NCBI GenBank assembly: GCA_029552945.1
Contig: JAKPDD010000046.1
Location: forward strand, 8,366 to 72,365
Direction: 5' to 3'
DNA length: 64,000 bases
Origin: Spirochaetota bacterium
GTDB lineage: Bacteria > Spirochaetota > GWB1-36-13 > JAKPDD01
Notes under the pieces: generated by a model
What the model was told of the DNA's origin: nothing
Databases searched by the model: none
Seen by the model: the letters and a program-made list of their open reading frames with translations, nothing else
In this document: one piece after another, positions 26,432 through 56,020 of the stretch
Position numbering within the stretch: the stretch's first letter is position 1
Layout: each line of letters begins with the position of its first letter
Program-made: the position numbers and the translations under genes

Positions 26432-28660
26432 ATGGTTTTATCAGAGTCATATACTTCTCTTCTTAATAAATTGATTGTTAATCCAAGGATAACAGATGTT
26501 CTAATAAAAATATATGAGAAGAAAGAGATCTCACTTGAGGAACTTGACAATTATTTGAAGGACCCGGATTTTCTAAGAGAGACTCTAGTATTTCTTGATA
26601 ATAATAAATTAATAGCAAGAACAGGAAATACTGTTTATTATAAACCACTTATAGACTATTCTAAAATAGATAACTTTATTGAAAACTATAAGATAGCTAA
26701 AGAACTTTTTTACGACGAAGTTAAAAACTTTTATAAAACACGTGCTTTTAATATTGCTATACTTGAAGAAAAACTGAATGAAGTTTTTGCAAATGTTAAT
26801 AAATATACTGATATAAGCTCTAATTTTAGAAGTATATATAAAATTAAAGACTTGTATCCGAAAAGTGCTGAAATAACAATAAATATTATAGGAGTAAACT
26901 CTTTTGAAGTTTATGAAATAAGAGATTCTCTTGTGAAAAATGTTTTTTTTAAATACACAACATCTGATAGTTTTATGCAAACTGATTTTGAAAAAAAGAT
27001 TATAAATGAATCTATACAGTTAAATGAACCTATAGTTGTAAATGAGCCACAAATTAATAATCTTGCTGTAAAAAGGATTTTTACTGTTTATCCTGTAATG
27101 TATGAAAATAAGATTGTTAATGTACTTCTTTTTGGTTTTGATACTTCTAATATTTCTCTGATAAAAGATAATATTGTTGACCTTATTAATGGTTTTGTTT
27201 TAAACTTTACACTTACTTTAAAGACTGTTAATATGATTAAAGTTCTTGAGGATAAGGTAGCAGAAAGAACAAATGAACTTAATAAAGCTAATAAGGAACT
27301 AAGATCTATTAATGAAGAGATATCTTTTAAAAACAGAGCCAAAATAAAAGAGATAGAGATAGCCGCAAATATACAAAGAACTGTTATACCAGATCCAAGA
27401 TATATACCGAGGATAGGACCTTTAAGCCTTGGTGCTGTATGGATCCCTATGCCTATGAAAAAGACTGGTGAGAAAGATGTTGTTGTAAAAGAGGTTAGTG
27501 GTGACTTTTTTAACTATTATAAGATAAATAATGATGAATATGGTTTTGTTATAGCAGATGCTTCAGGACATGGAATACCTGCTGCACTTCTTACAATGAT
27601 GGCAAGTGCTGCTTTTTCGTTTAATTCCAGAAAAGGTGGAACAACTGCAGAAATATGTGAAAGAGCAAATAAAGAGATACATAGTGCTATAGGTACTATA
27701 GGTTCTTATCTTACTGTTTTTTACCTTAAAATCAATCTTAAAACATTAAAAACACAGTTTACAAATGCAGGACACCATAAGGCAACTGTTTATAGGAAAA
27801 AGACAGGTAAACTTGAAGATTGGAACTCAGAAGGATTTTTTATTGGTGCAATCGATGAAGCTTTATATGGTTATGGTGAGAGTTTCCTGGAACCAGGTGA
27901 TAAGGTTGTGTTAACAACAGATGGTATTGAGGAGGCCAGGAGACTTTTGCCAGAAGAGGTAAAAGAATCAAAGTTTAATTCTCTTGTTCTTGATAAAGTA
28001 GGGAAAGAGGATAGGGACTTTATACTAAGTCTCTACGATAATAAAGATGGCAAATATATTATCAATAAAAGGGAACTTTTAAGAGATGAAGCTGATAGGC
28101 TTATAGATATATATAATTCTATTGGTTATGATCTTCAAAATGAAGAAGATAAACTTAGAGCAGACTTTTTTGAAGAGGAAAGACTTAAGGAGTTTATTAT
28201 AAATAATGCGACATTACCAGCTAAAGACTTTGCTGAAAAACTTATTGAAGAGGTAGAAATATTTTGTAATGGTGTTCCAGCAGACGATGACAGAACTGTG
28301 TTGGTAATAGATGTTGGGGCACCTACTAAAGAGACCAAGAATGTATTAATTGAAGAAGCTATAACTAAAATTTCTATGAAGAATTTTAAAGAAGCAGAAA
28401 GTTTACTATTGAAATACATAAAAGAGTACGGTGAAGAGATTGAAGTAATGCTGGATCTTGCTGATGTTTATATTATGTCAAATCAGGATGGTAAGGCTGA
28501 AAAGATTTATCAGGAAATGCTTAAAAAGTATCCTAATGAATACAGAATATATCAGGGATTATCAAAGATTGAGATAAATAGACATAACTATGAAAAGGCT
28601 GCTGAATATAGAGATGAGTCTTTAAAGATAATGACAAAGATGAAAAAAAGGAAAAAATAA
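26432..28660 (+). CDS. Cytoplasmic PP2C/SpoIIE-family Ser/Thr phosphatase with an N-terminal regulatory region, a coiled coil and C-terminal TPR repeats.
   Basis: 742 aa. A coiled coil (EDKVAERTNELNKANKELRSINEE) precedes the PP2C signature (SGDFFNY...FVIADASGHGIPAA...TTDGIEEA...DDDRTVLVI). A TPR-like C-terminus follows (ESLLLKYIKEYGEE...YQEMLKKYPNEYRIYQGL). Confidence 0.7.
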   Translation: MVLSESYTSLLNKLIVNPRITDVLIKIYEKKEISLEELDNYLKDPDFLRETLVFLDNNKLIARTGNTVYYKPLIDYSKIDNFIENYKIAKELFYDEVKNFYKTRAFNIAILEEKLNEVFANVNKYTDISSNFRSIYKIKDLYPKSAEITINIIGVNSFEVYEIRDSLVKNVFFKYTTSDSFMQTDFEKKIINESIQLNEPIVVNEPQINNLAVKRIFTVYPVMYENKIVNVLLFGFDTSNISLIKDNIVDLINGFVLNFTLTLKTVNMIKVLEDKVAERTNELNKANKELRSINEEISFKNRAKIKEIEIAANIQRTVIPDPRYIPRIGPLSLGAVWIPMPMKKTGEKDVVVKEVSGDFFNYYKINNDEYGFVIADASGHGIPAALLTMMASAAFSFNSRKGGTTAEICERANKEIHSAIGTIGSYLTVFYLKINLKTLKTQFTNAGHHKATVYRKKTGKLEDWNSEGFFIGAIDEALYGYGESFLEPGDKVVLTTDGIEEARRLLPEEVKESKFNSLVLDKVGKEDRDFILSLYDNKDGKYIINKRELLRDEADRLIDIYNSIGYDLQNEEDKLRADFFEEERLKEFIINNATLPAKDFAEKLIEEVEIFCNGVPADDDRTVLVIDVGAPTKETKNVLIEEAITKISMKNFKEAESLLLKYIKEYGEEIEVMLDLADVYIMSNQDGKAEKIYQEMLKKYPNEYRIYQGLSKIEINRHNYEKAAEYRDESLKIMTKMKKRKK

Positions 28661-41926: not shown

Positions 41927-43452
41927 TTTTTGTTTTTTTTTCTATTTTCCTGTATTCTCAAGGCAAAACTCAAAAGGTTTCAATAAAATATATAGAGATA
42001 TCAGGTAATTATTCTTTTACAAAAAAAGAGATTCTGAATGTACTTAAAATAAAAGAGATGATGGAATATGAGATAGAAGAGATAAAAACTAAATTAGATA
42101 TATTGAAAAAATTCTATGTTGATAATGGGTATCTTCTGACAAAGATAGACTCTTATATTGGTCTTGATGGTATTTTCTATATAATAATTAATGAGGGTAT
42201 CATAGATAATACTGTATTTGTTAATCTTGATTATTTTCAGATAATATTAGTAAAAGATATATTTGGTGATTTTAAAAATGTTATTTTTCATAAACCAACT
42301 GTTGAAGCAAAACTCTCAGACCTAAAATCAAAGATAAAGGTTGACTTTGACTATGAGTTTTTAAACTCTGATAGAGATGGTCATTATATACTTTTTCTTG
42401 TTAGAAATCAAAGTAAACAAGACAAAACAGAGGATGGAAAACTTAAACCATATTTTGATTACTATTTTAATTTCAGGGGTTGGTTATTATTACTTGTCCC
42501 ATATTTTTATGTTACTTTTTATAATATTGGAGGAATAGATCATTCTTTAAGATTTAGAGTTGATATAAGATTTGCTACTGAAAACTGGATTTATGCTAAG
42601 TTCAGGGAAAGTGTAATTGATGAATACTATTCTGTTGAATATTTTACTCCCCCTATATACAAAGATTTTAAGTTAAACATAAACACTGGTATATTTATTA
42701 ATAGGAGTGGCCGTGGTGACCTAGGACTAAAATACAAGCTTATAAGATACCCTTTTGAGGTTGGTGGGGGATTTGACTTTAAATATTTCTGGGCATCATT
42801 AAGAGGTGGTATGGTCTATCTTAAGTTTAGAAACCCTGAAAATACAGGTGATGGTTTTGTCCAATTTGATCCTTTTAATTATCCTGAACTTACTGGTGAA
42901 TATGATAAGATTTTTAAAACAATCTCCCTTAGTATAAACTATTCTGAGCCTAAAAAATACCATAAGGAGAAGGATAATTTTATAAGATTTTCCCTAACTC
43001 ATTTTTCAAATGAAAATTATAAGTGGATAAGTCTTTATGCTAAATCTGAGTATTTTTTTATTTTTGATTATGACCTTATAGCTCTAAGATTTAAGTCTTT
43101 CATGAATATAGGGAAGTTTCCTGGATATTATGCTCATACGATTGTGGAAGACTTTTATCTTAGGGGTTATAAGGATGAACCTATATTTACTGATAGGGGG
43201 CTTGCAGGTGGTTTTGAATATTGGAACTCTTTTTATACTGATAAATGGCATACATTATTTTTTATAGACTTTGCCTATTTTAATAATCAAACTTATAAAT
43301 CGCCGATATCGATAGGTGATTTTGAAACAAGTTATGGTATTGGTATCTCTTACTCATTTGAGGAGTTGAACCTTAGATTTAGTTATTCTCTTGCATTAAA
43401 ATCAAGGGCTGATAGTGGTAAGTTTGATTTTTTCTTCAGGAAAAGATTCTAA
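41902..43452 (+). CDS. Omp85-family outer membrane protein: one POTRA-like domain plus a beta-barrel.
   Basis: 516 aa. A signal peptide is followed by a POTRA-like region (VSIKYIEISGNYSFTKKEILNVLKIKEMM...YVDNGYLLTKID). A long Tyr/Gly/Phe-rich C-terminal domain ends in ...FDFFFRKRF, with a terminal Phe. Confidence 0.5.
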   Translation: MRSYIFALIFVFFSIFLYSQGKTQKVSIKYIEISGNYSFTKKEILNVLKIKEMMEYEIEEIKTKLDILKKFYVDNGYLLTKIDSYIGLDGIFYIIINEGIIDNTVFVNLDYFQIILVKDIFGDFKNVIFHKPTVEAKLSDLKSKIKVDFDYEFLNSDRDGHYILFLVRNQSKQDKTEDGKLKPYFDYYFNFRGWLLLLVPYFYVTFYNIGGIDHSLRFRVDIRFATENWIYAKFRESVIDEYYSVEYFTPPIYKDFKLNINTGIFINRSGRGDLGLKYKLIRYPFEVGGGFDFKYFWASLRGGMVYLKFRNPENTGDGFVQFDPFNYPELTGEYDKIFKTISLSINYSEPKKYHKEKDNFIRFSLTHFSNENYKWISLYAKSEYFFIFDYDLIALRFKSFMNIGKFPGYYAHTIVEDFYLRGYKDEPIFTDRGLAGGFEYWNSFYTDKWHTLFFIDFAYFNNQTYKSPISIGDFETSYGIGISYSFEELNLRFSYSLALKSRADSGKFDFFFRKRF

Positions 43453-44156
43453 GCTTTAACTATTTTGTCTATGAAAGTCTTAAGATTTTCTTTTATACTT
43501 TTAATCTCTAAACTTTTTATCTTGTCTTCTATAAGATTCCTGTAATATTTTAACTTGTCTGATAAAAATTTTTCATCCATATTACTATCTTTGTCAATAA
43601 TGTCATCTTTTATCTGGTATAGTATTCCAATATGTTTTAGAATATAATATATCTTTCTTAGTGTGTCATAGTTATATTTCTCGATAATTGCTAATATAGG
43701 TGCAACAAATAGTAAACCTGTCTTATTGTAACATGTTGTTATATAATTTTTTTTATCTATTTCTGATAGGATCATTCTTTCAATTATTTTTATAAAAGCC
43801 TTACCTATTAAATCGTTCTTAAAAATATTTTTTATTGCTTTTATTATCATAATACTTGATATCAGGTATGCTTTTTTGTCTCCTATATACTTATTTAATG
43901 GTTTTTTGCCCCTTCTTTCTGTTTCATCATCTACTATATCATCAATTATTATTGCTGAGTTGTGAATTATTTCTATTATACTTGCTATCCTTACATTTTT
44001 TTCTTCAGTTTTAAACTCTGATAAAATAAATACAAGTTCGCTCCTTAGCATTTTGCCAAAATCTATATTTAATTTTTCTTTTTTAATTTTCATTATACTA
44101 TAGATTTTTTCTATAACTTTTTTTTTAAAATCATTAAGTTTCTTTGAATAACTCAT
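43449..44156 (-). CDS. Short trans-isoprenyl diphosphate synthase-like protein (polyprenyl synthetase fold).
   Basis: 235 aa with two Asp-rich motifs, IIDDIVDDETERRGK (first DDxxD) and IKDDIIDKD (second). It overlaps the hflX start by 23 nt. Confidence 0.5.
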   Translation of the reverse strand: MSYSKKLNDFKKKVIEKIYSIMKIKKEKLNIDFGKMLRSELVFILSEFKTEEKNVRIASIIEIIHNSAIIIDDIVDDETERRGKKPLNKYIGDKKAYLISSIMIIKAIKNIFKNDLIGKAFIKIIERMILSEIDKKNYITTCYNKTGLLFVAPILAIIEKYNYDTLRKIYYILKHIGILYQIKDDIIDKDSNMDEKFLSDKLKYYRNLIEDKIKSLEIKSIKENLKTFIDKIVKA

Positions 44157-45210
44157 TAAATATCCTTTTTTTTAATTTATCTATCCCTTTACCAGTTAAA
44201 GATGATATAGGTATTGCTAAAGGGTATTCATCCATAAGACTCTTTAATGATTCTCTGTCTATCATGTCTATCTTTGAAAAACAGAGAATATATTTTTTAT
44301 TACTGCAACCTATTTCATCCAGTGTTGAAAATACAGTGTTAAGCTTATCTTTTATTTTACTGCTTGACGAATCCTGTAATATAAGTAATAGTCTTGAGTA
44401 TTTTATCTCTTCTAGAGTTGACTTAAATGAAGCTATAAGTTGGGTTGGCAACTTGTTTATAAATCCTACTGTATCAGCAAATAGTACTATTTTACCATTT
44501 ATAAAGACTTTTCTTATTACAGGGCTTAATGTTGAAAATAGCCTATTTTCAGATAAGAGTTGTGCCTTACTCAAAGTATTTAAAAGAGCTGTTTTCCCTG
44601 CGTTTGTGTATCCAATTATACTTACTATAGGAATGTTTTCAGTTAATCTTTTTTGTCTAATTATGTTTCTATTTGATTCTATCTCTTTTAGTTTTTCTGT
44701 TAGTTTTGATATTCTTCTTTTTATCAATCTTTTGTCGATTTCTATCTGCTTTTCACCAGGTCCTTTTGTAAACCCATATCCCCCCTCTATTCTCGATAGA
44801 TGTGTCCACATTCTTTTAAGCCTTGGCAACATATATTTTAGTTTTGCTATCTCAACCTGTGTCTTTGCTTCTGCTGTCCTTGCATTGTTTTCAAATATAC
44901 GGAGTATAAGTTCAGTTCTGTCAATTACCATTATACCTGTTTCTTTCTCAAGATTTCTTTGTTGATTAGGTTTTAATTCATCATTAAATATGATAACCTC
45001 TATTTTATGTTTTTCTATTATTGTTTTTAATTCCTCTATCATAAAAGATGTTATCAGAGTTGCAGGATTTATTTCCTTAAGTCTGAAAACTATTGTATCT
45101 ACTACCTCTATTTCGATAGTTTCAGAAAGTAATTTTAATTCAGTAAGAGATTCTTCTAATCCTATAATCTCTTTATTATAGATATATATACCTAAACAGA
45201 TTCCCCTCAA
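44134..45210 (-). CDS. hflX: GTPase HflX.
   Basis: 358 aa with an HflX N-terminal domain and a G-domain (IVSIIGYTNAGKTALLN, DTVGFI, and the NKxD-equivalent SKID). Confidence 0.85.
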   Translation of the reverse strand: MRGICLGIYIYNKEIIGLEESLTELKLLSETIEIEVVDTIVFRLKEINPATLITSFMIEELKTIIEKHKIEVIIFNDELKPNQQRNLEKETGIMVIDRTELILRIFENNARTAEAKTQVEIAKLKYMLPRLKRMWTHLSRIEGGYGFTKGPGEKQIEIDKRLIKRRISKLTEKLKEIESNRNIIRQKRLTENIPIVSIIGYTNAGKTALLNTLSKAQLLSENRLFSTLSPVIRKVFINGKIVLFADTVGFINKLPTQLIASFKSTLEEIKYSRLLLILQDSSSSKIKDKLNTVFSTLDEIGCSNKKYILCFSKIDMIDRESLKSLMDEYPLAIPISSLTGKGIDKLKKRIFNELFKET

Positions 45211-45804
45211 TTAACTTACCTTAAAACTTATAGATATTCCATCACCAATATCAAGTATTATTGTTTCAAAATTTTCATATATATATTTTGAAAACTCAGC
45301 CATTTTTTTTACCATCCTTTTTTCTGATCTTTTTAAGTCATCTCTATTTATCCTGTTTCTTAAGTATATATTATCTGCTATTACTATTGAGTCTTTGTTT
45401 AAGTATTTTTCTATCTCTTTTATATAATCTATATACCTTGCCTTAGCACCATCTATAAATACAAGATCAAATACTGTTTGATTTTCTTTTATAAACTCAA
45501 AAAAGTCTATTCCAACTAATTTTATATTATTCTTGTTGAATTTTTTTATTATATCTTTTCCTTTATCAAACCTTGTAATCTCTTTTTCAAGTGAAATAAT
45601 TTCTGCTTCTTTTGATGCTTCAGACATAAAAAAGGAAGAAAAGCCGGAACCAAAACCTATTTCAAGTATTGTTTTTGGTTTTTTTGTTTTAACAATAGTA
45701 TATAGAAAATAACCTACTATTTCATCAATAAGTGGAATATTATTTTCCTGGGCGTAGTTTCTTATATATTCTACCCATTCAAAACTTAATTTTTTGTTTA
45801 TTAT
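45211..45804 (-). CDS. Class I SAM-dependent O-methyltransferase (family 3 / caffeoyl-CoA-OMT/YrrM-like). There is no canonical start codon; a possible ATA start follows a strong SD.
   Basis: The frame is open from a TAA at 45817-45819 down to 45211. The translation ...IPLIDEIVGYFLYTIVKTKKPKTILEIGFGSGFSSFFMSEASKEAEIISLEKEI...FDLVFIDGAKARYIDY... carries SAM motif I (LEIGFGSGFS) and post-I motifs. The ORF track only calls the last 138 aa from an internal Met. In-frame ATA codons at 45802-45804 and 45799-45801 follow an AAAAGGAG SD. Confidence 0.5.
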   Translation of the reverse strand: MINKKLSFEWVEYIRNYAQENNIPLIDEIVGYFLYTIVKTKKPKTILEIGFGSGFSSFFMSEASKEAEIISLEKEITRFDKGKDIIKKFNKNNIKLVGIDFFEFIKENQTVFDLVFIDGAKARYIDYIKEIEKYLNKDSIVIADNIYLRNRINRDDLKRSEKRMVKKMAEFSKYIYENFETIILDIGDGISISFKVS

Positions 45805-45908
45805 GCTTCTCCTTTTTTAACTTTGTTTTTTAAATTTTAACTTAAATTTTTTTACTTAAAATTTTAAAAGGTAAGAAAAAATGCAATCTTCTAATTTAAT
45901 CATCAATT

Positions 45909-48020
45909 CTATTTCATCTTTTTTTCTATAAACTCAATTATCTCTTCTCTATTTCTTCTCTCTTTCAATATTTTTAAAAACTCTTCATCTTTACAGATTT
46001 TAGCTATATTGAAAATAGCTTCAAAGTGTGTCTTTGTATCTGAAGTTAAAACAACAAATAGGGTGTGAACCTTTTCACCATCTATAGCTGGATAGTCTAC
46101 AGGATTTTCGGGAAAACATATTGCGATAATCTCATCCTCTTTTCTGTGGACTATTGGATTTCTTGAATGGGGAATTGCGATCCCTTTATCTATTGAGGTT
46201 GGCATGAGTGTTTCTCTTTCTATTAGATTATGCAGTATTTGATCTTTTGAAAGCTTATATATGGATGGTAATTCTGGAACTATGTTTTTAATAAGTTCTA
46301 TATTGTTATTTCCAGGTATATTATAATATATACCACCATTTTTTATTTTATCAACAAAGCTTATCTTCTTTATACCCAGGATCTCTTTTGCCCTTTCTAA
46401 GGCTGCATCTATATTTTCCTGTATATTTATTTCTCCTATCAATTTATCAATTTCAGATTGTTTGATTATTTCAAGTGGTTGTTTTTGAACTCCAGATAAT
46501 ATTAGACTTATTCCCTCTTTTTTTGAGTCTTCAATTAACTTTTTTAGTATATGAATACCGGTTGCGTCTATTGTAGGCACTCTTCTCATTCTTATTATTC
46601 TTACTTTTGGTGGGTTTTCAACTTGGGTCATAGCTTCTTTAAACTTTTGTGCAGCACCAAAAAAAAGGGGACCATCTATCTCAAATACTTCCACACCCTT
46701 TGGTATCTCTCTTGTTTGAAGGTTAAATGGATCAAAATCTTCTTCATTTTCTTTTAATTGATCTTTTATAAAGTTAACTTCTGAGACTACTACCATACGT
46801 CTCATAAATAGGAATGCTGCTAAAACAATTCCTATTTCTATTGCAACAGTAAGATCAATTATAACAGTTAAAATAAATGTGATTAATAATACAGCTGCAT
46901 CACTCTTTGTTGACTTTAATATTTCTACAAAACTTCTCCATTCACTCATATTGTATGCAACTACAACAAGGATTGCCCCCAATGTTGAGAGTGGTATTAA
47001 TTCAGCCCATTTGCCAAAAAATATCATTATAAGAAATATTGTTAAAGCGTGCGTCATACCTGCGATTGGAGTTCTTCCTCCATTTTTTATGTTTGCTGCT
47101 GTTCTTGCTATTGCTCCTGTTGCTGGTATTCCCCCAAATACTGGTGAAACTATGTTTGCTACACCATTAGCTATAAGTTCCATGTTTGACCTATGTTTAC
47201 CACCTATCATACCATCAGCAACTACAGCAGATAATAATGCTTCGATACCAGCAAGTAGTGCTATTGTAAATGCAGGGTTTATTAAGTTTTTGAATGTTTC
47301 AAAGCTTATATTAGGTATTTTTGGGGAGGGGAGTGAGGATGGGATACTACCGAACTTACTTCCTATTGTTTCAACAGGTAGGTTAAAAACCTGTACAACA
47401 ATTGTCGATATTATTATAGCTATTAATGACCCTGGTATCTTTTCTGTTACTTTTTTCCAGAATACTATTATGAGTATTGAACCTATACCTATAATTAATG
47501 GATAGATATTTATAGTGTGTATATTGGAAATATATTCGATCCATTTCTCTATAAACTCTGAAGGGACTTTTTCTATCTTTAAACCAAAGAGGTCTTTTAT
47601 CTGTGATGAAAATATAATTAGTGCTATTCCACTTGTAAAACCTACTGTTACGGGGTGAGGTATATATTTTATTACTGAACCTAATTTCACCAATCCCATT
47701 ATTATCAGAAAAAAGCCTGCTATAAATGTTGCTATAGCAAGCCCATCAATTCCATATTTCTCAACTATGCCGTATACTATTACAACAAATGCACCTGTAG
47801 GCCCACCTATCTGTACTCTACTACCACCTAAAAATGATATTATAAATCCTGCAATTACTGCAGTAAATAGACCCTTTTCTGGTGTTACACCTGATGCTAT
47901 AGCAAAAGCAATTGCAAGAGGTATAGCTATTATTCCTACTATTACCCCCGCACTAAGATCCTGTATAAATTGATTCTTATTATAGTTTTTTAGAGTGTCT
48001 AATAACTTTGGCCTTAACAT
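45909..48020 (-). CDS. SulP-family anion transporter fused to a STAS domain and a C-terminal PTS EIIA(Ntr)/fructose-type (EIIA-2) domain.
   Basis: 703 aa. The N-terminal 420 aa or so form a polytopic SulP core (GIIAIPLAIAFAIASGV...). A STAS domain follows (EVFEIDGPLFFGAAQKF). The last 150 aa or so carry an EIIA-2 signature with a phosphorylatable His (DKGIAIPHSRNP ... HTLFVVLTS). Confidence 0.8.
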   Translation of the reverse strand: MLRPKLLDTLKNYNKNQFIQDLSAGVIVGIIAIPLAIAFAIASGVTPEKGLFTAVIAGFIISFLGGSRVQIGGPTGAFVVIVYGIVEKYGIDGLAIATFIAGFFLIIMGLVKLGSVIKYIPHPVTVGFTSGIALIIFSSQIKDLFGLKIEKVPSEFIEKWIEYISNIHTINIYPLIIGIGSILIIVFWKKVTEKIPGSLIAIIISTIVVQVFNLPVETIGSKFGSIPSSLPSPKIPNISFETFKNLINPAFTIALLAGIEALLSAVVADGMIGGKHRSNMELIANGVANIVSPVFGGIPATGAIARTAANIKNGGRTPIAGMTHALTIFLIMIFFGKWAELIPLSTLGAILVVVAYNMSEWRSFVEILKSTKSDAAVLLITFILTVIIDLTVAIEIGIVLAAFLFMRRMVVVSEVNFIKDQLKENEEDFDPFNLQTREIPKGVEVFEIDGPLFFGAAQKFKEAMTQVENPPKVRIIRMRRVPTIDATGIHILKKLIEDSKKEGISLILSGVQKQPLEIIKQSEIDKLIGEINIQENIDAALERAKEILGIKKISFVDKIKNGGIYYNIPGNNNIELIKNIVPELPSIYKLSKDQILHNLIERETLMPTSIDKGIAIPHSRNPIVHRKEDEIIAICFPENPVDYPAIDGEKVHTLFVVLTSDTKTHFEAIFNIAKICKDEEFLKILKERRNREEIIEFIEKKMK

Positions 48021-48167
48021 TTTATTTTTATCCTCTTTTAGTATTTATAAAAGATAGAAATAGAAAATAATTTAACTAGTATCGTAACTAATAATTAAAC
48101 TAAGAGGATAATAATGACTTGTAAAACGTCTATCCACTTAGTTTATTTTTTTAGTTCTATTCAATTC

Positions 48168-49448
48168 TTAAAGATATTTTCTTGGGTCTGTTATTTTACC
48201 CTCTATTGCTGTAGCAGCAGCAGTTGCAGGTGATGCTAAATGTACCATGCCGCCCTTACCCATTCGCCCATTAAAGTTTCTGTTAGTTGTAGCCACAGCA
48301 ACTTCACCCGGTGCAAGTACCCCATTACTCATGCCAAGACATGCACCACATGTTGGGTTTGTTACACTTACTTCAGCTTCCATTAAGATGTCGATTATTC
48401 CTTCCTTTAAAGCTTGATTAAATATTTTTGGTGTTGCAGGTGATACTATTACTCTCACATCTGGATTTATTTTTCTTCCTTTAAGGATTTTGGCAACTAC
48501 TCTAAGGTCATCAAGCCTGCCATTAGTACAACTACCTATATATACCTGATCAACTTTTTTGCCTTCAAGTTCTTTTACTGGTTTTACAACATCAGGCTTA
48601 TACTCATCAGTTATCATTGGCTCCAATTTTGATACATCTATTTTTATAATTTTTTCATAAACAGCATCTTCATCTGGCCACCACTTTTTAAAATCGTTTA
48701 ATGCCTCTTTTTTTGACTTATACTCATTTTTTATAAAAGGCCATAAATATTCAACTGTTTCCTCATCAGGGTATACTATTCCACTTGTTCCACCAGCTTC
48801 TATTGCCATGTTTGTTATTGTCATTCTCTCATCCATAGTCATTTTTCTTATTGCAGAACCAGTAAACTCAATTACCCTGTCTGTTGCACCGTTTACACCA
48901 AGTGTTTTGATAATGTATAAAATAACATCCTTTGAATAAACTCCTTTAGGTAATTTTCCATCAACCTCAATTTTTATTGTTTTTGGGTCTTTAAATGCAC
49001 ATACCCCTTTTAATATCCCACCTTCAAGGTCTGTTGTACCAACTCCTGCAGCAAATGCACCAAATGCACCATGGGTACATGTATGTGAGTCACCCATTAT
49101 TATGGTATATCCTGGTCTAACAAACCCTTTTTCTGGGAATATTGCATGGCATACACCATTTCTTCCAACATCAAAAAAGTCTTTTATACCATGTTTTTTT
49201 GCCCATTCTCTTAATATTTTATGTTGTATTGCTGTTTGTGTGTCTTTTGCAGGTGTGACATGGTCAATTACAAGTTTTATCTTGTCAGGATTAAAAACCC
49301 TGTCTTTTCCTTTTGCCTGAAGGTCTAATATTGCAGGTGGTGTTGTAACCTCATGTCCAAATACAAGGTCAAGCGATATTATGTTAATATCTTCAATTTT
49401 CTCTATCAGGTGTTTTTCAAAAATCTTTTCAACAACAGTTTTTCCCAT
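48168..49448 (-). CDS. Aconitase-family dehydratase large subunit (3-isopropylmalate dehydratase / homoaconitase LeuC-type, short form).
   Basis: 426 aa. DHVTPAKD, IMGDSHTCTHGAFGAFAAGVGTTD and GSCTNGRLDDL match the [4Fe-4S] cysteine ligands and substrate motifs of LeuC/HACN large subunits. No small subunit is adjacent. Confidence 0.8.
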   Translation of the reverse strand: MGKTVVEKIFEKHLIEKIEDINIISLDLVFGHEVTTPPAILDLQAKGKDRVFNPDKIKLVIDHVTPAKDTQTAIQHKILREWAKKHGIKDFFDVGRNGVCHAIFPEKGFVRPGYTIIMGDSHTCTHGAFGAFAAGVGTTDLEGGILKGVCAFKDPKTIKIEVDGKLPKGVYSKDVILYIIKTLGVNGATDRVIEFTGSAIRKMTMDERMTITNMAIEAGGTSGIVYPDEETVEYLWPFIKNEYKSKKEALNDFKKWWPDEDAVYEKIIKIDVSKLEPMITDEYKPDVVKPVKELEGKKVDQVYIGSCTNGRLDDLRVVAKILKGRKINPDVRVIVSPATPKIFNQALKEGIIDILMEAEVSVTNPTCGACLGMSNGVLAPGEVAVATTNRNFNGRMGKGGMVHLASPATAAATAIEGKITDPRKYL

Positions 49449-49556
49449 TTTGGCCTCTTTAATAGTTTATTTTTTGTTTTTTTGTGCTTAAATTTGTTCT
49501 TTAAATTTAACTTAAGAGATTAAATAAGTTAAAAAATTTATAGTGGGGTAATTTTT

Positions 49557-50858
49557 ATGAAAAGAGTTATTTTATTGTTAATTCTTGTTAGTTTTTTACC
49601 ATTTTTTTCTATTAGCGGACAGAATGAAAGTAATAGTGACATTTTTAATCTTATTAGGACTGATAGAGATAAAGCTATTGGTTATATCGGTAATTTAAAT
49701 AAGACAGATATTTTAAGTATAAAAGATAGTAAAGGTAGGGGAATAATTAACCATGCAACATCACTTAACGATATTTCTCTTGTTCAATTATTGTTATCAA
49801 AAGGTATTGATATAAACTTCAAAGATGATCTTGGTTTTACTGCACTTCATGATGCTGTAATATCTTCGAATAAGGATATGGTCCTTTTTTTGTTATCAAA
49901 GGGTGCTAATCCAAATATTGGTGATAATAGAGGTATTACACCTCTAATGTTTGCGATAAAAAACGGAGAAGAGCAGATATTTAGAATACTTTTGCCGGTA
50001 ACTAATAAATATACTAAAGACCTAGCAGAAAAAAACGTTCTACACTATTGTGTTTATTATAATAGAGTTGATATGCTTAAAGTTATAATAAATGATTATA
50101 AACTGCTTATTAATCAGAAAGACAATATAGGAAGGACACCTTTACACTATGCAGCTTCTTTAGGTAATATTGAAATTGTTAAAATACTTCTTGAGAATGG
50201 TGCTAATCCAAATATACTTGATTATTCTAATGATTATAGAAGGACAGCTTTAGATTATACTACGAATGAAGAGGTAAGGAAATTAATAACTAATTATGGT
50301 GGTGAAAACGGAAAGTATTCCTATGTAAATAAAGTGGCTTTTGGTCCTACATTTTATACAACTGACTTTGATAGTCCTATATATTATTATGGTGGTGGAT
50401 TTGAATTATATCTTGATAAGTCTGTAAGCTTATACTGGACGTTTGCGTATGGAGAAAATAGTGGTTACAAAAATTATAAATTGGGTGGTATTTATTTTGC
50501 ATTGCATAATATTTTCACTCTTTTTAAAACAAATTATGACAAGGAGTATAATGAAAAGAATTTTCTTTTTAAAGCCCTTCTTGTACTTTCTGCTATATCA
50601 CCAGAAGGTATATATATAAACTTTTATGTAAATGATTACCCTTTTATTTTTTATAGTATATATGCAGGCTTTGCTGGGCTTGATATGGCAAGTTCTCCGT
50701 ATGACAAAGACTTTTATGTGAGTGGTGCTATAGGTGGTAGGGGTGGGATTATTCCTATAGATGATTTAAGAATAACTTTATTTTTTAATTTGAGACTTAC
50801 ATATAACACAGGTAATGGTGGTTACGAAATGGGGGGAGGAATCTCTTATAAATTTTAA
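49557..50858 (+). CDS. Secreted ankyrin-repeat protein with a C-terminal beta-barrel-like (putative outer membrane) domain.
   Basis: 433 aa with a signal peptide. There are at least 5 ankyrin repeats (GFTALHDAVISSNKDMVLFLLSKGANPN, GITPLMFAIKNGEE, GRTPLHYAASLGNIEIVKILLENGANPN). The C-terminal 200 aa or so have an alternating aromatic/Gly pattern ending ...GGGISYKF. Confidence 0.7.
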   Translation: MKRVILLLILVSFLPFFSISGQNESNSDIFNLIRTDRDKAIGYIGNLNKTDILSIKDSKGRGIINHATSLNDISLVQLLLSKGIDINFKDDLGFTALHDAVISSNKDMVLFLLSKGANPNIGDNRGITPLMFAIKNGEEQIFRILLPVTNKYTKDLAEKNVLHYCVYYNRVDMLKVIINDYKLLINQKDNIGRTPLHYAASLGNIEIVKILLENGANPNILDYSNDYRRTALDYTTNEEVRKLITNYGGENGKYSYVNKVAFGPTFYTTDFDSPIYYYGGGFELYLDKSVSLYWTFAYGENSGYKNYKLGGIYFALHNIFTLFKTNYDKEYNEKNFLFKALLVLSAISPEGIYINFYVNDYPFIFYSIYAGFAGLDMASSPYDKDFYVSGAIGGRGGIIPIDDLRITLFFNLRLTYNTGNGGYEMGGGISYKF

Positions 50859-50901: not shown

Positions 50902-52734
50902 ATGAACCTTAGAAAAGAACTTAATTTTTTAGGAATATTTTCTCTTGCAACAGGTGCTATGATAAGTTCTGGATTGTTTGTACTCCCAGGTTTTGCTTAT
51001 AATATTGGTGGTGCATCTATATTTTTAGCCTATCTTATAGGTGGGATTATAGCAATTTTAGGTCTTTTTTCTGAAGTTGAGATAGCAACAGCAATGCCAA
51101 AAGCAGGTGGAAGTTATTTTTATATAACAAGGATAATGGGTCCTGCTGTAGGTAGTATAAATGAAATTGTTACATGGTTTACTCTTACTTTAAAAACATC
51201 GTTTGCAATTGTTGGTATGTCAGCCTTTTTGCAATATATAGGTAATATTGACTTTAGAATAGCAGGGGTTGTTACTAGTATTATTTTTTGTATAGTAAAC
51301 CTTTTTGGTATCAAAGACTCAGTTAGGATTCAAATTTACCTTGCTACTTTTTTAATTGCAATACTTTCTTTTTTTATATTTAAAGGTCTTTCTTACATAA
51401 AACTTGAAAACTTTGACCCTTTTTTCAAAGATATGAGTATTTTTTCAACTGTTGGTTTTGTTTTTGTTTCTTATGGGGGACTCCTTAATATAACGAGTGT
51501 ATCAGAAGAGGTTAAAGATCCTGGTAAAAATATTCCCAGGGGTATGTTTGTTTCTGCTATTTTAACAACAATATTGTATACTTTTGTTGTATTGATTACT
51601 GTTGGTGTTTTAGGTCCAAGGCTTGTATCAGGTGAAAATGGTATTACTCTTACTCCAATATCTGATGCTGCTCACACTTTTTTAGGTACTCCAGGTGAGG
51701 TTCTTTTAGGTATAGCTGCTATACTTGCATTTGTTTCAACTGCTAATGCTGGAATAATGGCAGCCTCAAGATATCCTTTTTCTTTAAGTAGGGATGGTCT
51801 TTTACCAAAATTATTTTCTAATGTAAATAAAAAAAATATTCCATATGTTTCTGTATTGACTACAACGCTTATTGTAATACTAACAATATTTATTGAACTT
51901 GATTTTTTAGTTAAAGCAGCATCTACAGTAGTTGTGTCAGGTTATATTATGTCAAGTTTGGGTGTTATAGTATTAAGAGAAAGTAAAATATTAAACTACC
52001 ATCCTTTGTTTAGGTCTCCTTTTTATCCTTACATACAAATAACTACTATAATAATAGCTGTTTTTCTTATTGTTGAGATTGGTATTACTGCATTTTTGAC
52101 TACTTTAGGATTAATTTTATTAAGTGGTTTGTTTTATATATTTTATGGGAGTAAAAAGAGAATTGAAGAGTATGCTCTCCTTTACTTAATTGAAAGAATA
52201 ACCAATAAGCAACTTGTAACAAGAAGGCTTGAAAATGAACTTAAGATGATAATAAGAGAGAGAGATAATATAACTAAGGATAGGTTTGATATGATAGTTG
52301 AGAAAGCATGTGTACTTGATACAGATGCAACTACTGCTGATAATCTATTTAAAGAGATTGCAGTTTTATTGTCTGATAAAATTGATCTTGATAAAGAAAA
52401 AATATATAAGTTACTTAAAGAAAGGGAAGAGGAGAGTAGTACTGCTATAACGAATTTTCTTGCTATACCACATATAATTATAGAGGGTTCAAATAAGTTT
52501 TATATTGTTCTTGCAAGATCAAAAAATGGTGTATTTTTTTCTGACAATTATCCTTCTATTAAAGCTATTTTTGTACTTATCGGAACAAAAGATGAAAGGA
52601 ATTTTCACTTAAAGGCTTTATCATTTATTGCCCAAATAGTCAAAAATAAAGATTTTGAAAAAAAGTGGATATCTGCAACTAGTGAGGAAGGACTTAAAGA
52701 TGTTGTAATACTAAGTGAAAGAGTAAGAGATTGA
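50902..52734 (+). CDS. APC-superfamily amino acid permease fused to a C-terminal PTS EIIA(Ntr)-type (EIIA-2) domain.
   Basis: 610 aa. The N-terminal 420 aa or so form a 12-TM APC core (GAMISSGLFVLPG ... FSEVEIATAMPKAGGSYFY). The C-terminal region has NFLAIPHIIIEG...AIFVLIGTKDE, which is EIIA-2-like with the conserved His. Confidence 0.75.
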   Translation: MNLRKELNFLGIFSLATGAMISSGLFVLPGFAYNIGGASIFLAYLIGGIIAILGLFSEVEIATAMPKAGGSYFYITRIMGPAVGSINEIVTWFTLTLKTSFAIVGMSAFLQYIGNIDFRIAGVVTSIIFCIVNLFGIKDSVRIQIYLATFLIAILSFFIFKGLSYIKLENFDPFFKDMSIFSTVGFVFVSYGGLLNITSVSEEVKDPGKNIPRGMFVSAILTTILYTFVVLITVGVLGPRLVSGENGITLTPISDAAHTFLGTPGEVLLGIAAILAFVSTANAGIMAASRYPFSLSRDGLLPKLFSNVNKKNIPYVSVLTTTLIVILTIFIELDFLVKAASTVVVSGYIMSSLGVIVLRESKILNYHPLFRSPFYPYIQITTIIIAVFLIVEIGITAFLTTLGLILLSGLFYIFYGSKKRIEEYALLYLIERITNKQLVTRRLENELKMIIRERDNITKDRFDMIVEKACVLDTDATTADNLFKEIAVLLSDKIDLDKEKIYKLLKEREEESSTAITNFLAIPHIIIEGSNKFYIVLARSKNGVFFSDNYPSIKAIFVLIGTKDERNFHLKALSFIAQIVKNKDFEKKWISATSEEGLKDVVILSERVRD

Positions 52735-53498
52735 AAAAAATATTTCTTTCTTTATTACTGTTTTTTTTATCTCTTACTTTATTTTCTATCGATAAAAAAA
52801 TAGTTTCTCTTACACCTGCAATAACATCTATACTTATAGATATTGGTTATTCTGACAATATTGTTGGTGTAACTTCAAATGATTTTTTTTTAAAAAGAAC
52901 AGTTATTGGAACTATAATAAATATAAATGAAGAGAAAATTATTCTCTTATCACCTGATATTATAATCTATCAAGACTTTCAAGAGTTTTTAGTAAGTGGA
53001 TTAAAGAATATACTTAGAAAAAAAGAGTTTATAAGACTTAATATAAAAGATGTTAATTCTATATTCAATGAAACTAAGAAGATATTAAATTATCTTGGTA
53101 AAAGTCAGAGAGAATTGAATAGGTGGATGGACGATTATAAACGTGAAATTAACAAATGTAAAAATTCTATAAATAAAAATTTTAAATACATATTTATAGT
53201 TGATAGAGACCCTGATTTTAAGAGTATCTTTGTAAGTGGTAATAGTAGCTTTATATCAGAAATTTTAAACTCTATAGGTGGGATAAATATTATTGAATCT
53301 AATAGAGATTATATAAAAATTAACCAGGAATTTTTACTTTCTTTGGATGGTGTTGTTGTATTTGATAGTTCATTTAATAAATTTTACAATAATAAACTAT
53401 TTTATGAAAAATATTTAGTAATTGATAATAAAAATATTACAATACCAGACCTTAGACTTAATGAAAAGGTTAAATATTTATGTGGTTTATTAAAGTAA
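52731..53498 (+). CDS. Periplasmic substrate-binding protein, class III (BtuF/siderophore-type) ABC SBP fold.
   Basis: 255 aa with a signal peptide. KKIVSLTPAITSILIDIGYSDNIVGVT is the BtuF-like N-lobe signature. The start overlaps the stop of the upstream permease (ATGA). No cognate permease or ATPase is adjacent. Confidence 0.5.
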   Translation: MKKIFLSLLLFFLSLTLFSIDKKIVSLTPAITSILIDIGYSDNIVGVTSNDFFLKRTVIGTIININEEKIILLSPDIIIYQDFQEFLVSGLKNILRKKEFIRLNIKDVNSIFNETKKILNYLGKSQRELNRWMDDYKREINKCKNSINKNFKYIFIVDRDPDFKSIFVSGNSSFISEILNSIGGINIIESNRDYIKINQEFLLSLDGVVVFDSSFNKFYNNKLFYEKYLVIDNKNITIPDLRLNEKVKYLCGLLK

Positions 53499-56020
53499 TA
53501 GTTTTATTTTTTTCTCTTGTATTTTTTTCTTTTTCACTTTACTCTGAAGAGGTTGTTATAAAAAATGCTGATAAAATTTCATACATAAGAAAAAAAGATG
53601 AAGCAGGATATACTAAGATTGAACTTTATGGTAATGTATATATTATCTACAAAGATAAAAACATTTTTACTGATAGACTTGTGATAAAGTTTTTTAACGA
53701 TGAACCAAAAGAGATAATAGGTGACGGCAATGTAATGATTGAGGATAAAAACTCAATAGTAATAGGAAACAAGTTTTTTTATTATCTTGAATCTGAAAAG
53801 CAGGTAGTTTATGAAGCACAAACATATAATAAACCTTATTTTATAAGAGGTGATTATTTTAAGTTTATTGATAAAAATAATTTTATAGCGTCAGATATAA
53901 GTTTCTCAAACTGTGAGATGTTTTATCCCCATTATTCTATATCAGCAAAAAAGGCATGGATATATAAGGATGATAAAGACTTTTTCTTTGGTTTCAGTTT
54001 GAAAGCAGGGCAGGACCCTATATTTTATTTTCCTTTTATGTACAAATCATATTATGGGACAGGTATTATAACATCAATTGGTAATGAGACAATAGGGTGG
54101 TTTGTAAATAATACTTATAAGACAAAAGGGCAGTCTTATGACTTTAAGTTTATGTTTGATCATTATCAAAGGTTAGGTGAATATTTTGGTATAAATTATA
54201 AACTTAACGGAACTCCTGGTCTTGATATTAAAACATCTCTGATATATGATAAACACATAAAATATACAGGAACAGATTTTACAAACTTTTTTGAAGAGGT
54301 AAGTGGGGAGGGGCCTGTATCTGGCAGGTCAATGAGGTATAAGGTAGATGTTAACCTTACAGATAATATACTTAATGGTGATAATATACTTTCTCTTAAC
54401 ACTTCTATGAATATAAAATATTTTGAGACAAGTGATCCTTTTATTCAAAGTCAATATGAAACAAGAAGGCTTGAGACTTTTGATGCTAATAAAATACTTT
54501 TTCCCCAGGAGTCACCATCTTCTATGGCATTACAGAGTGGTGGTACAGGACAAGGTAGGACAATATATTTTGCTTTGAATAATACTTTTTATGGTTTTTC
54601 ACTTAATCTTATTGGTGATTTTAAATGGATACTTTCTATGAGTGATAACCCTTCTGAAGCCAGAAACCCTTATAAACCAGATTATTATAAAAATTATAAG
54701 TCTTCAATAACATTCCCTAGTATTAATTTTTCGAAGTCTTTTAGCTTATTTAATATTAACTCAGATAATTTTAAATGGCCATTTTCTTTAAGTTTATCAG
54801 GTAATTATGTTGATACAAAAAGTTATTCACTTGGGGATATAACATCAGAGTCTTTGAATAGGGGTATTACAACAAATCTTAATATGCCTTTGACATACAA
54901 TTTTAGCAACTATAGTTTAATTTCTAGTTTTGCTATTTCTAATATTATAAACATTGGGGATACATCCTCTTACAGTTCTGGGGTTTTATCTAGAGAAATG
55001 AGAACATCAGATATTACAACAAACTTTAATAATCCTATATCTTTTAATGCAAAGTTTAATACTTCATCTTTAACATCGTCTGTTCCACTTACATTTTCTT
55101 ATAAGATTTACAAACAAGAAACAAAGAATCCAACAATAACTGACATAGATAGTGATAGATTAAATAGTTATAAGTATTATTCTTATAATATTGGTACAGA
55201 TACCAAATACAGTTTTTTAGAGGATTATGAATATCTTAACTCTTCAATACAAGCAAGAATGACTTATTCATATTCAAAAAAGTATGACCTGCCTCCATCT
55301 ATCTATAATACTACATCGACTTATAATTATTTTGCATCGTTTAATACATTAATGTCTTCTATTACGTTTTCTACGTTTACCAATACATCTCCTGGTGTTA
55401 CGGGTGAAAGCAGAGAGGGGCCTATTAATATTGGATTTCAGAGTCAAATTATCCCTTTTTTTTCAGTATCAAATAATCATGTTTATAGTAGATATGAGAA
55501 AAGAAGTAAGACCAATGACTTTTCTATTACATCATCTATTAAGGCAAAAACTGATATTTTTGATAATTTCTGGTTAAATAGTTTTTCATTTACTCTAAGG
55601 TGGTATAAAGACTATATTAACTTTAGGTCTGATTATATAAATTATAATATGTCCATAAATTTTAATATTACAAGATTATGGGAATTAAGTTTTGTATTTT
55701 CAGGACAGAATAATAGATTGTACTATTATACTGATAAGGTGAGTAAACAAGAGAGAAGAGACTTTTTTGATGATCTTATAAAGTCTTTGAAAATATGGTC
55801 TATAAAGGACAGAGAATATACATACTTTAAAATGAACTCTTTTGGTTTTAATGTAAAACATAACCTTCACAAATGGTATTTTGAGTTTACATCATCTTTC
55901 ACACCAAGGCTTGATCCTAATGGTTCCTTTTATTTTGAAAGTCTTATAGGTTTTAAACTAGTATTAACAGAAATACCTGGACTTTCACCACCAGAGATAA
56001 AAAAGGAATATGGAAAATGA
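53480..56020 (+). CDS. lptD: LPS-assembly protein LptD (OstA).
   Basis: 846 aa with a signal peptide. An N-terminal OstA/LptA-like beta-jellyroll (ADKISYIRK...GNVYIIYKD...GDGNVMIEDKN) is followed by a conserved PIFYFPFMY segment, equivalent to the E. coli PVPIFYSPY. A large C-terminal Ser/Asn/Tyr-rich beta-barrel follows. Confidence 0.7.
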   Translation: MWFIKVIVLFFSLVFFSFSLYSEEVVIKNADKISYIRKKDEAGYTKIELYGNVYIIYKDKNIFTDRLVIKFFNDEPKEIIGDGNVMIEDKNSIVIGNKFFYYLESEKQVVYEAQTYNKPYFIRGDYFKFIDKNNFIASDISFSNCEMFYPHYSISAKKAWIYKDDKDFFFGFSLKAGQDPIFYFPFMYKSYYGTGIITSIGNETIGWFVNNTYKTKGQSYDFKFMFDHYQRLGEYFGINYKLNGTPGLDIKTSLIYDKHIKYTGTDFTNFFEEVSGEGPVSGRSMRYKVDVNLTDNILNGDNILSLNTSMNIKYFETSDPFIQSQYETRRLETFDANKILFPQESPSSMALQSGGTGQGRTIYFALNNTFYGFSLNLIGDFKWILSMSDNPSEARNPYKPDYYKNYKSSITFPSINFSKSFSLFNINSDNFKWPFSLSLSGNYVDTKSYSLGDITSESLNRGITTNLNMPLTYNFSNYSLISSFAISNIINIGDTSSYSSGVLSREMRTSDITTNFNNPISFNAKFNTSSLTSSVPLTFSYKIYKQETKNPTITDIDSDRLNSYKYYSYNIGTDTKYSFLEDYEYLNSSIQARMTYSYSKKYDLPPSIYNTTSTYNYFASFNTLMSSITFSTFTNTSPGVTGESREGPINIGFQSQIIPFFSVSNNHVYSRYEKRSKTNDFSITSSIKAKTDIFDNFWLNSFSFTLRWYKDYINFRSDYINYNMSINFNITRLWELSFVFSGQNNRLYYYTDKVSKQERRDFFDDLIKSLKIWSIKDREYTYFKMNSFGFNVKHNLHKWYFEFTSSFTPRLDPNGSFYFESLIGFKLVLTEIPGLSPPEIKKEYGK

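Follow-up and report, generated by a model that had tools for sequence, protein, structure and literature searches.

An APC-type amino acid permease with a PtsN-like EIIA tail from a Spirochaetota contig: a widespread fusion that may be controlled by phosphorylation

Why would a secondary amino acid permease carry, at its C-terminus, a domain of the phosphotransferase system (PTS)? The question is raised by a gene at positions 50902–52734 (forward strand) of a 64,000-nucleotide stretch of contig JAKPDD010000046.1 from a Spirochaetota bacterium (assembly GCA_029552945.1), which is referred to below as the window. The original prediction, made from the sequence alone, was that this gene encodes an APC-family permease fused to an EIIA(Ntr)-type domain and that a second transporter with the same regulatory module is encoded nearby. 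The analysis described here bears out the fusion, places its tail closest to the regulatory protein PtsN and finds the same architecture in many bacterial phyla, where the tail may control transport through phosphorylation of a conserved histidine.

The gene is complete, with an ATG start, a TGA stop and 610 codons plus the stop codon in the list of open reading frames (ORFs). In its product, Pfam recognizes AA_permease_2 (PF13520) with 156.6 bits over residues 7–396 (cutoff 27) as well as AA_permease (PF00324) with 143.8 bits in the permease half, followed at the C-terminus by PTS_EIIA_2 (PF00359) with 89.1 bits (E = 3.5e-25) over residues 469–598, corresponding to profile positions 7–137 of 144. 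The PF00359 score, on which the prediction had been made to depend, is thus well above its cutoff of 27 bits, and both peptide motifs that had been quoted, FSEVEIATAMPKAGGSYFY and ITNFLAIPHIIIEGSNKFYIVLARSKNGVFF...IKAIFVLIGTKDE, are present in the 610-residue protein. The C-terminal extension is also present, and its length is about 190 residues (421–610) rather than the 180 or so that had been estimated.

The EIIA domain itself (residues 467–610; 52300–52731, forward strand) is defined by PF00359, by profile searches of the PDB and by an AlphaFold2 model of the fusion protein with a mean predicted local distance difference test (pLDDT) score of 80.1 and a predicted template-modelling score of 0.63, in which this domain reaches a pLDDT of 86–94. 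When the tail was compared with the PDB as a single sequence, the only matches were four PtsN/EIIA-Ntr structures; with the family profile, the PtsN structures 1a6j, 2a0j, 4gqx and 3urr led (E = 5e-11 to 5e-8), and the EIIA-Mtl structure 1a3a trailed them by about 20 bits (E = 4e-5). The tail is a genuine EIIA-2 domain, closest to PtsN/EIIA-Ntr as had been proposed, and the phospho-histidine and its two partner residues are conserved. In the alignment to 1a6j, for which the PtsN residues were numbered by our own count along the PtsN sequence, the predicted phosphorylation site His524 in the motif AIPH (codon CAT, 52471–52473) corresponds to Escherichia coli PtsN His73, Arg508 (codon 52423–52425) to Arg57 and His569 (codon 52606–52608) to His120; all three codon positions, on the forward strand, were verified. 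Among 191 unique family members His524 is found in all 191, Arg508 in 189 and His569 in 188, with Tyr replacing His569 in each of the three remaining members. The invariance of His524 at about 50% overall identity across many phyla points to selection on the chemistry of phosphotransfer, beyond maintenance of the fold alone, and argues for a working phospho-acceptor site in the tail.

The closest solved homologs of the tail are therefore the PtsN proteins of E. coli (1a6j), Neisseria meningitidis (2a0j) and Burkholderia (4gqx and 3urr), with which it shares the Arg/His/His triad. PtsN, however, is soluble and free-standing, has about 160 residues and acts in trans on several targets, whereas the tail is covalently attached to one transporter and has an additional conserved 46-residue linker at its N-terminus. 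The tail is PtsN-like without being a PtsN ortholog, because it is fused rather than free and its score falls far under the cutoff of the PtsN equivalog model TIGR01419 (41.3 versus 138.7 bits); the cutoff of NF008145 is missed as well (35.8 versus 221 bits). The label 'Ntr' is a historical name, and neither the window nor the surroundings of the fusion at 83 other loci contain rpoN, hpf, ptsO or hprK.

A fusion of this kind could in principle be an artefact, in which an assembly chimera, a frameshift or readthrough had merged two separate genes, one for a permease and one for PtsN. The probability of this is negligible. A homolog search with the fusion protein gave 5,171 proteins at E ≤ 1e-10, and the fusion is taken as genuine because all 120 homologs listed share its architecture (PF13520 with PF00359), with lengths of about 609–638 residues and about 50% identity. 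When each species was represented by a single genome, a full-length APC–EIIA relative was encoded in at least 582 of the genomes scanned, this number being a lower bound. The 610-residue protein is moreover 100% identical, with an identical Pfam architecture, to a database protein (P0001) from a Spirochaetota metagenome-assembled genome (MAG), where it is labelled 'amino acid permease'; P0001 is recorded from NCBI, JGI, Logan and ENA sources and the identical protein occurs on 19 contigs. No point in support of an artefact was found.

The APC–EIIA fusion is common, not rare, and the gene in the window is an ordinary member of a large uncharacterised family. Its carriers belong to Omnitrophota, Planctomycetota, Cloacimonadota, Spirochaetota/Leptospirales, Latescibacterota and WOR-3, and further to Verrucomicrobiota and their relatives, Fibrobacterota-like groups, Zixibacteria and Gemmatimonadota; the best 80 genome matches are all MAGs, among which the labels Planctomycetota, Leptospirales and Spirochaetota are frequent. 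No recurrent neighbour was seen at 83 APC–EIIA loci, where the top cluster consists of generic PAS sensor proteins (13 loci), and gene context therefore gives no hint of a substrate or a partner. At one locus (L008:8092–11836), on a metagenomic contig of 1.47 Mb, two APC–EIIA genes encoding 609 and 611 residues form a tandem duplication; a third APC permease, encoded 6 kb from them, has no tail. At another, in a Cloacimonadota MAG, the APC–EIIA gene is followed about 7 kb downstream by a free-standing PtsN-like ORF of 221 residues (L041:9889–10554, forward strand; E = 2.7e-15 against E. coli PtsN), the sole such case in the 83 loci.

The permease core (residues 1–420; 50902–52161, forward strand) is of the APC/SLC7 type with a LeuT fold, as judged from PF13520, a match to GkApcT and a Foldseek comparison. 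GkApcT (6f34/5oqt), a CAT homologue from Geobacillus, is the best solved match (E = 1.5e-31), with residues 2–418 of the permease aligning with GkApcT residues 22–456. Superposition of the AlphaFold2 model on the solved transporter (6f34_A), with a TM-score of 0.84 normalised to the target and a root-mean-square deviation of 2.7 Å over 438 columns, supports a core of 12 transmembrane helices in the LeuT fold. GkApcT and MjApcT (3gia) are thus homologous to the permease core over its full length, but they end after transmembrane helix 12 without a cytoplasmic regulatory tail such as the fusion protein carries, and at an identity of just 24% to the core their substrate specificity is not transferable. 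None of the named APC subfamily or equivalog cutoffs in NCBIfam (BcaP, ABT 2A0306, CAT, AdiC and others) was reached; the best equivalog was TIGR00909 with 172.7 bits against a cutoff of 556.8, and BcaP gave 155 against 690. As an APC/SLC7 secondary transporter, the protein probably carries an amino acid or a related amine.

Between transmembrane helix 12 and the EIIA domain lies a conserved helical linker (residues 421–466, IEEYALLYLIERITNKQ...LENELKMIIRERDNITKDRFDMIV; 52162–52299, forward strand). Averaged over its columns, it is better conserved than any other part of the protein, with a mean column identity of 0.776 versus 0.719 for the membrane core, and Leu443, Glu446, Arg454, Asp455 and Asp460 are invariant in 191 of 191 sequences; it has no match in Pfam or the PDB. 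A search of 1.84 billion representatives with a profile of the linker and EIIA domain, derived from the APC fusions, gave 237 clusters (at 50% identity) at a threshold of E ≤ 1e-30. These include APC fusions and probable contig-end fragments, and the module also scores 160–220 bits in architectures other than APC. Five representatives combine it with Na_H_Exchanger and TrkA_N, it is likewise found with Na_H_Exchanger and TrkA_C, and it is fused to a P-type cation ATPase (P0373, 808 residues). The signature common to these architectures is DRFD…AIPH…DERNFHLRALSAIAQ…W…ERRR. Since it occurs on several types of transporter, the linker with its EIIA domain is a portable module for membrane transporters, and this agrees with a general plug-in role in regulating transport. 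The cation–proton antiporter (CPA) fusions with TrkA domains mirror a reported interaction, in which non-phosphorylated E. coli PtsN binds TrkA (PMC3665714). One oddity among the matches is the module on a protein of the ATP-synthase α/β family (P0320, 732 residues), with N-terminal, nucleotide-binding and C-terminal domains, which could be a product of gene-calling readthrough.

If the tail is phosphorylated, a phosphocarrier is required. No EI (Enzyme I), HPr or HprK was present among the precomputed Pfam calls for all genes of the window, and the search was extended by 10 kb past each window edge, so that about 84 kb of genome was covered in all. Nothing related to the PTS was found in the 10 kb past the left edge. 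Just beyond the right edge, at window-equivalent positions 67658–68365 (L089:16214–16921, reverse strand, L089 being exactly collinear with the window end), two adjacent genes of the HPr family (PF00381) lie on the same contig, 14.9 kb downstream of the permease stop codon. The first HPr-family protein, of 96 residues, has the motif NGIHVRPAA and AKS at the Ser46-like position and passes TIGR01003 (65.8 bits versus a cutoff of 47.9), and the second, of 135 residues, has NGLHIRPG and a C-terminal extension of about 40 residues and scores just under this cutoff (41.4 bits). The active-site histidine is intact in both, which makes them candidate phosphate donors, and the tandem paralogs might serve different EIIA tails. 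Regulatory-type EI has been reported in Planctomycetes and Leptospira, and of the lineages with such an EI, those other than some Proteobacteria have no PTS transporters (PMC2405797, Comas et al. 2008); these reported lineages fit the taxonomic range of the APC–EIIA fusion.

We propose that transport is controlled in cis through phosphorylation of His524 by HPr or NPr, by analogy with LacS, and consider the chance that this is so to be about even. EI would charge a phosphocarrier of the HPr/NPr family from phosphoenolpyruvate (PEP), the charged carrier would reversibly phosphorylate His524 of the PtsN-type tail, and the invariant helical linker would pass the phosphorylation state on to the permease. 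Transport would thereby be switched up or down, and uptake would follow the PEP/pyruvate or nutrient status of the cell. The second EIIA-tailed transporter of the window, a DauA-like SulP transporter for anions or dicarboxylates, would read the same phosphorelay through an EIIA domain of its own that was acquired independently.

The analogy has two sources: in LacS a fused EIIA-Glc-like domain is phosphorylated by HPr and modulates transport (PMC10710835), and in Rhizobium leguminosarum the PTS-Ntr controls amino-acid ABC transporters in trans (PMC3665714). LacS, from Streptococcus and Lactobacillus, likewise has a PTS EIIA domain in cis at the C-terminus of a secondary transporter, and was the sole experimentally characterised transporter–EIIA fusion found in the literature search. 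The protein described here is nevertheless not of the LacS type, which is defined by PF00358 on a GPH transporter, since its own domains are PF00359 and PF13520. The EIIA domain of LacS is EIIA-Glc, whereas the present tail is of the unrelated EIIA-2/PtsN type; LacS is a GPH/MFS-like transporter of a sugar, whereas the fusion has the APC/LeuT fold; and the hosts of LacS are Firmicutes with a full sugar PTS, whereas those of the fusion belong to lineages for which a regulatory-only PTS is reported. An equivalent of the conserved linker is also missing from LacS. In PRD regulators of the MtlR and LicR type, a domain of the EIIA-2 family serves as a phosphorylation-dependent module in a non-PTS protein; these regulators, however, are soluble DNA- or RNA-binding proteins with PRD and EIIB-like domains, whereas the fusion is a membrane transporter with neither.

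Several observations weigh against control in cis by phosphorylation. Neither EI nor HprK turned up in the roughly 84 kb of genome covered, and with EI missing there the phosphorelay of this organism is just partly evidenced. No PTS gene recurs beside the fusion at the 83 other loci, and no ORF resembling E. coli HPr was seen. The AlphaFold2 model renders the linker as helices at low confidence (pLDDT 45–54), and the assignment of a specific substrate had to be rejected, the substrate not being assignable because every NCBIfam equivalog score is far under its cutoff. The literature search found no experimental study of any APC–EIIA family member. Finally, in the closest relative of the SulP–STAS–EIIA protein (P0123, 78% identical, L091:10001–12121; a cluster of 20 member sequences) AIPY replaces AIPH while the second histidine and the arginine are kept, so that EIIA tails can evidently persist without the canonical site, and in this lineage the SulP tail may work without histidine phosphorylation.

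This last case bears directly on the alternative that the EIIA domain shares only its fold with the PTS and is a cytoplasmic domain for dimerisation, scaffolding or ligand binding, independent of phosphorylation. The cytoplasmic domain of the eukaryotic SLC4/Band 3 transporters has the EIIA fold, and PTS_EIIA_2 is named together with 'transporter' in the literature on SLC4 gene families. The Tyr in P0123, the Tyr at the His569 position in three APC–EIIA members and the lack of an EI gene in the roughly 84 kb covered would all agree with such a role. Maintenance of a fold alone, however, is insufficient to explain a histidine that is invariant in all 191 sequences and a PtsN triad kept across phyla at about 50% identity, and genes of the HPr family with an intact active-site histidine are present on the same contig; we therefore regard this alternative as unlikely. 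Control could also run in the opposite direction, with the fusion acting as a transceptor in which binding or transport of the substrate alters the phosphate on the tail, so that the HPr/NPr pool would report external amino acids to PTS-controlled targets. Transport flux sets the phosphorylation state of the PTS in the sugar systems, several different transporters bear the module and could feed one phosphocarrier pool, and tandem APC–EIIA paralogs such as those in L008 would be in keeping with this. The protein, however, contains no EIIB, EIIC or phosphate sink, so that it is hard to see how transport could draw phosphate from the tail, and no downstream target was found; in the simpler precedent of LacS, it is the PTS that acts on the transporter (PMC10710835). 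A transceptor is accordingly judged quite unlikely.

Does the neighbouring SulP gene, from which coordinated uptake of amino acids and anions had been proposed, strengthen control of the permease by the PTS? A second EIIA-fused transporter is indeed present, a DauA-like SulP–STAS–EIIA protein of 703 residues (45909–48020, reverse strand) recognized by the Pfam families Sulfate_transp, STAS and PTS_EIIA_2 (83.8 bits), for which the NCBIfam DauA model gives 532 bits, under its cutoff of 614. The residue equivalent to the phospho-histidine is His618 (46167–46169, reverse strand; codon position verified). The two fusion genes are separated by 2,881 bp and together span 6.8 kb, and the ankyrin gene and the LeuC-type gene described between them were confirmed by Pfam and NCBIfam; the two fusion genes lie on opposite strands and are divergently transcribed. 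The description of one and the same regulatory module on both transporters did not hold. The EIIA domains are 32% identical (E = 4e-7), and the APC-linked one has the conserved N-terminal linker and a DERNFHL..AIAQ signature that is missing from the SulP-linked one, which indicates that the two tails were acquired independently. The SulP–STAS–EIIA architecture is also much rarer than APC–EIIA: PF00359 was found on nine of the top 120 SulP matches, the others being SulP–STAS proteins of 554–586 residues, many of them labelled Ignavibacteria, with 64–68% identity over the transporter part. A homolog search with the SulP EIIA tail alone gave one match from 35 word-index candidates and was uninformative.

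Coordinated regulation of the SulP and APC transporters is plausible, as is input to both tails from one shared HPr pool. That the two form a single co-regulated unit for amino-acid and anion uptake is a stronger claim, and we hold it to be rather unlikely. It is favoured by their placement within 6.8 kb, by the histidine that both EIIA domains retain in the genome of the window and by one close relative (L091, with a SulP protein 78% identical), the only one to retain the pairing, in which the whole block of APC–EIIA, ankyrin, aconitase-like and SulP–EIIA genes is kept. In the same relative, however, the histidine is lost from the SulP tail, no SulP gene lies within 10 kb of APC–EIIA at any of the 83 other loci, and another SulP–EIIA locus (L092, 55% identical) has no APC–EIIA gene nearby. 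The syntenic relative L007 has its genes in the order ThrRS, HisF, MurB, POTRA and APC–EIIA, with APC–EIIA placed immediately after POTRA and the six genes that include SulP absent. The low identity of the EIIA domains and the divergent transcription count against a single unit as well; because the pairing is lineage-specific and the genes are divergently transcribed, proximity is weak evidence for coordination. The extra block in the window amounts to about 7.4 kb between the POTRA and APC–EIIA genes (43449–50858, compared with L007:8401–11860) and comprises genes for a polyprenyl synthase, HflX, a methyltransferase, SulP–EIIA, the aconitase-like protein and the ankyrin protein.

The architecture is already known in the sense that it is abundant in public databases, and the principle of a secondary transporter with a fused EIIA domain is known from LacS. 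A full-text literature search gave no description of APC–EIIA or of the linker–EIIA module, prior mention in PTS reviews being possible, and we found no published account of the EIIA-Ntr-type tail, its linker or its distribution among APC, CPA and P-type ATPase transporters. Outside Proteobacteria, what the regulatory (Ntr-type) PTS does is for the most part obscure, and its Proteobacterial targets came singly from interaction screens. A covalent fusion, in contrast, names a target directly in the manner of a Rosetta stone: here an amino-acid-type permease and a dicarboxylate/anion transporter, and elsewhere K+/Na+-type exchangers with TrkA domains. As a tentative extension, to which we give a modest chance of being right, the linker and the PtsN-like domain would constitute a distinct 'PTS output tail' that was added repeatedly to APC permeases, CPA exchangers with TrkA/RCK domains, P-type ATPases and perhaps proteins of other kinds. 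In the many lineages with a PTS phosphorelay but no sugar PTS, the relay would then act directly on the tailed transporters above all, and phosphorylated His524 would move the linker as a cytoplasmic gate or plug. If so, one mechanism would let PEP or nutrient status set the fluxes of amino acids, cations and anions. A large family with an invariant phospho-histidine and linker also offers a tractable system for the gating of a LeuT-fold transporter by EIIA. For the window itself, the gain is mainly a correct annotation with its context, and not a unique discovery.

The genes around the fusion add local context. The ankyrin-repeat gene (49557–50858, forward strand; Pfam Ank_2 and related families) ends 43 bp upstream of the permease gene with no terminator-like site between them, this adjacency is kept in L091, and the two genes are possibly co-transcribed. 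The ankyrin protein has a signal-peptide-like N-terminus and a Gly/Tyr-rich C-terminal region of about 190 residues ending in ...GGISYKF, which resembles an outer-membrane β-barrel anchor; no significant Pfam family was found in its C-terminal 189 residues. Export of ankyrin proteins is uncommon among free-living bacteria. The LeuC-type gene encodes a large subunit of the aconitase/LeuC–HacA family (48168–49448, reverse strand; Pfam and NCBIfam) and lies 147 bp upstream of SulP–EIIA on the same strand, a pair that is adjacent in L091 as well. The window has no annotated gene for a small subunit (Aconitase_C/LeuD). The aconitase-like gene and SulP–EIIA could be an operon pairing a hydro-lyase with a transporter of di- or tricarboxylates.

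Downstream, the permease stop codon is overlapped by the TTG start of a gene for a 255-residue substrate-binding protein (52731–53498, forward strand), a gene call that is identical in three public assemblies. The ATGA overlap that had been reported here is not present: the sequence reads GAT TGA, and with the TTG of the next ORF at 52731 the overlap is TTGA. The description of this protein as BtuF-like stands as far as the family Peripla_BP_2 is concerned (Pfam, 42.4 bits), whereas the NCBIfam BtuF model gives 29 bits against a cutoff of 234. It is followed by an ORF of 846 residues (53480–56020, forward strand) with a signal-peptide-like N-terminus, which is conserved in L091 and has no significant Pfam family. 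This ORF overlaps the substrate-binding-protein gene upstream by 19 bp and a methyltransferase gene downstream by 4 bp, and because of these overlaps it probably belongs to one operon with the permease. A promoter scan gave 32 promoter-like sites versus 27 expected by chance and no terminator flanking the permease gene, and is uninformative at a G+C content of 28%. The window further contains two SpoIIE/PP2C-phosphatase sensors, a HAMP–SpoIIE protein of 947 residues (16625–19468, reverse strand) and a SpoIIE–TPR protein of 742 residues (26432–28660, forward strand). In L007 and L092, SpoIIE proteins are again encoded close to the fusion genes, which may reflect a signalling repertoire rich in partner switching.

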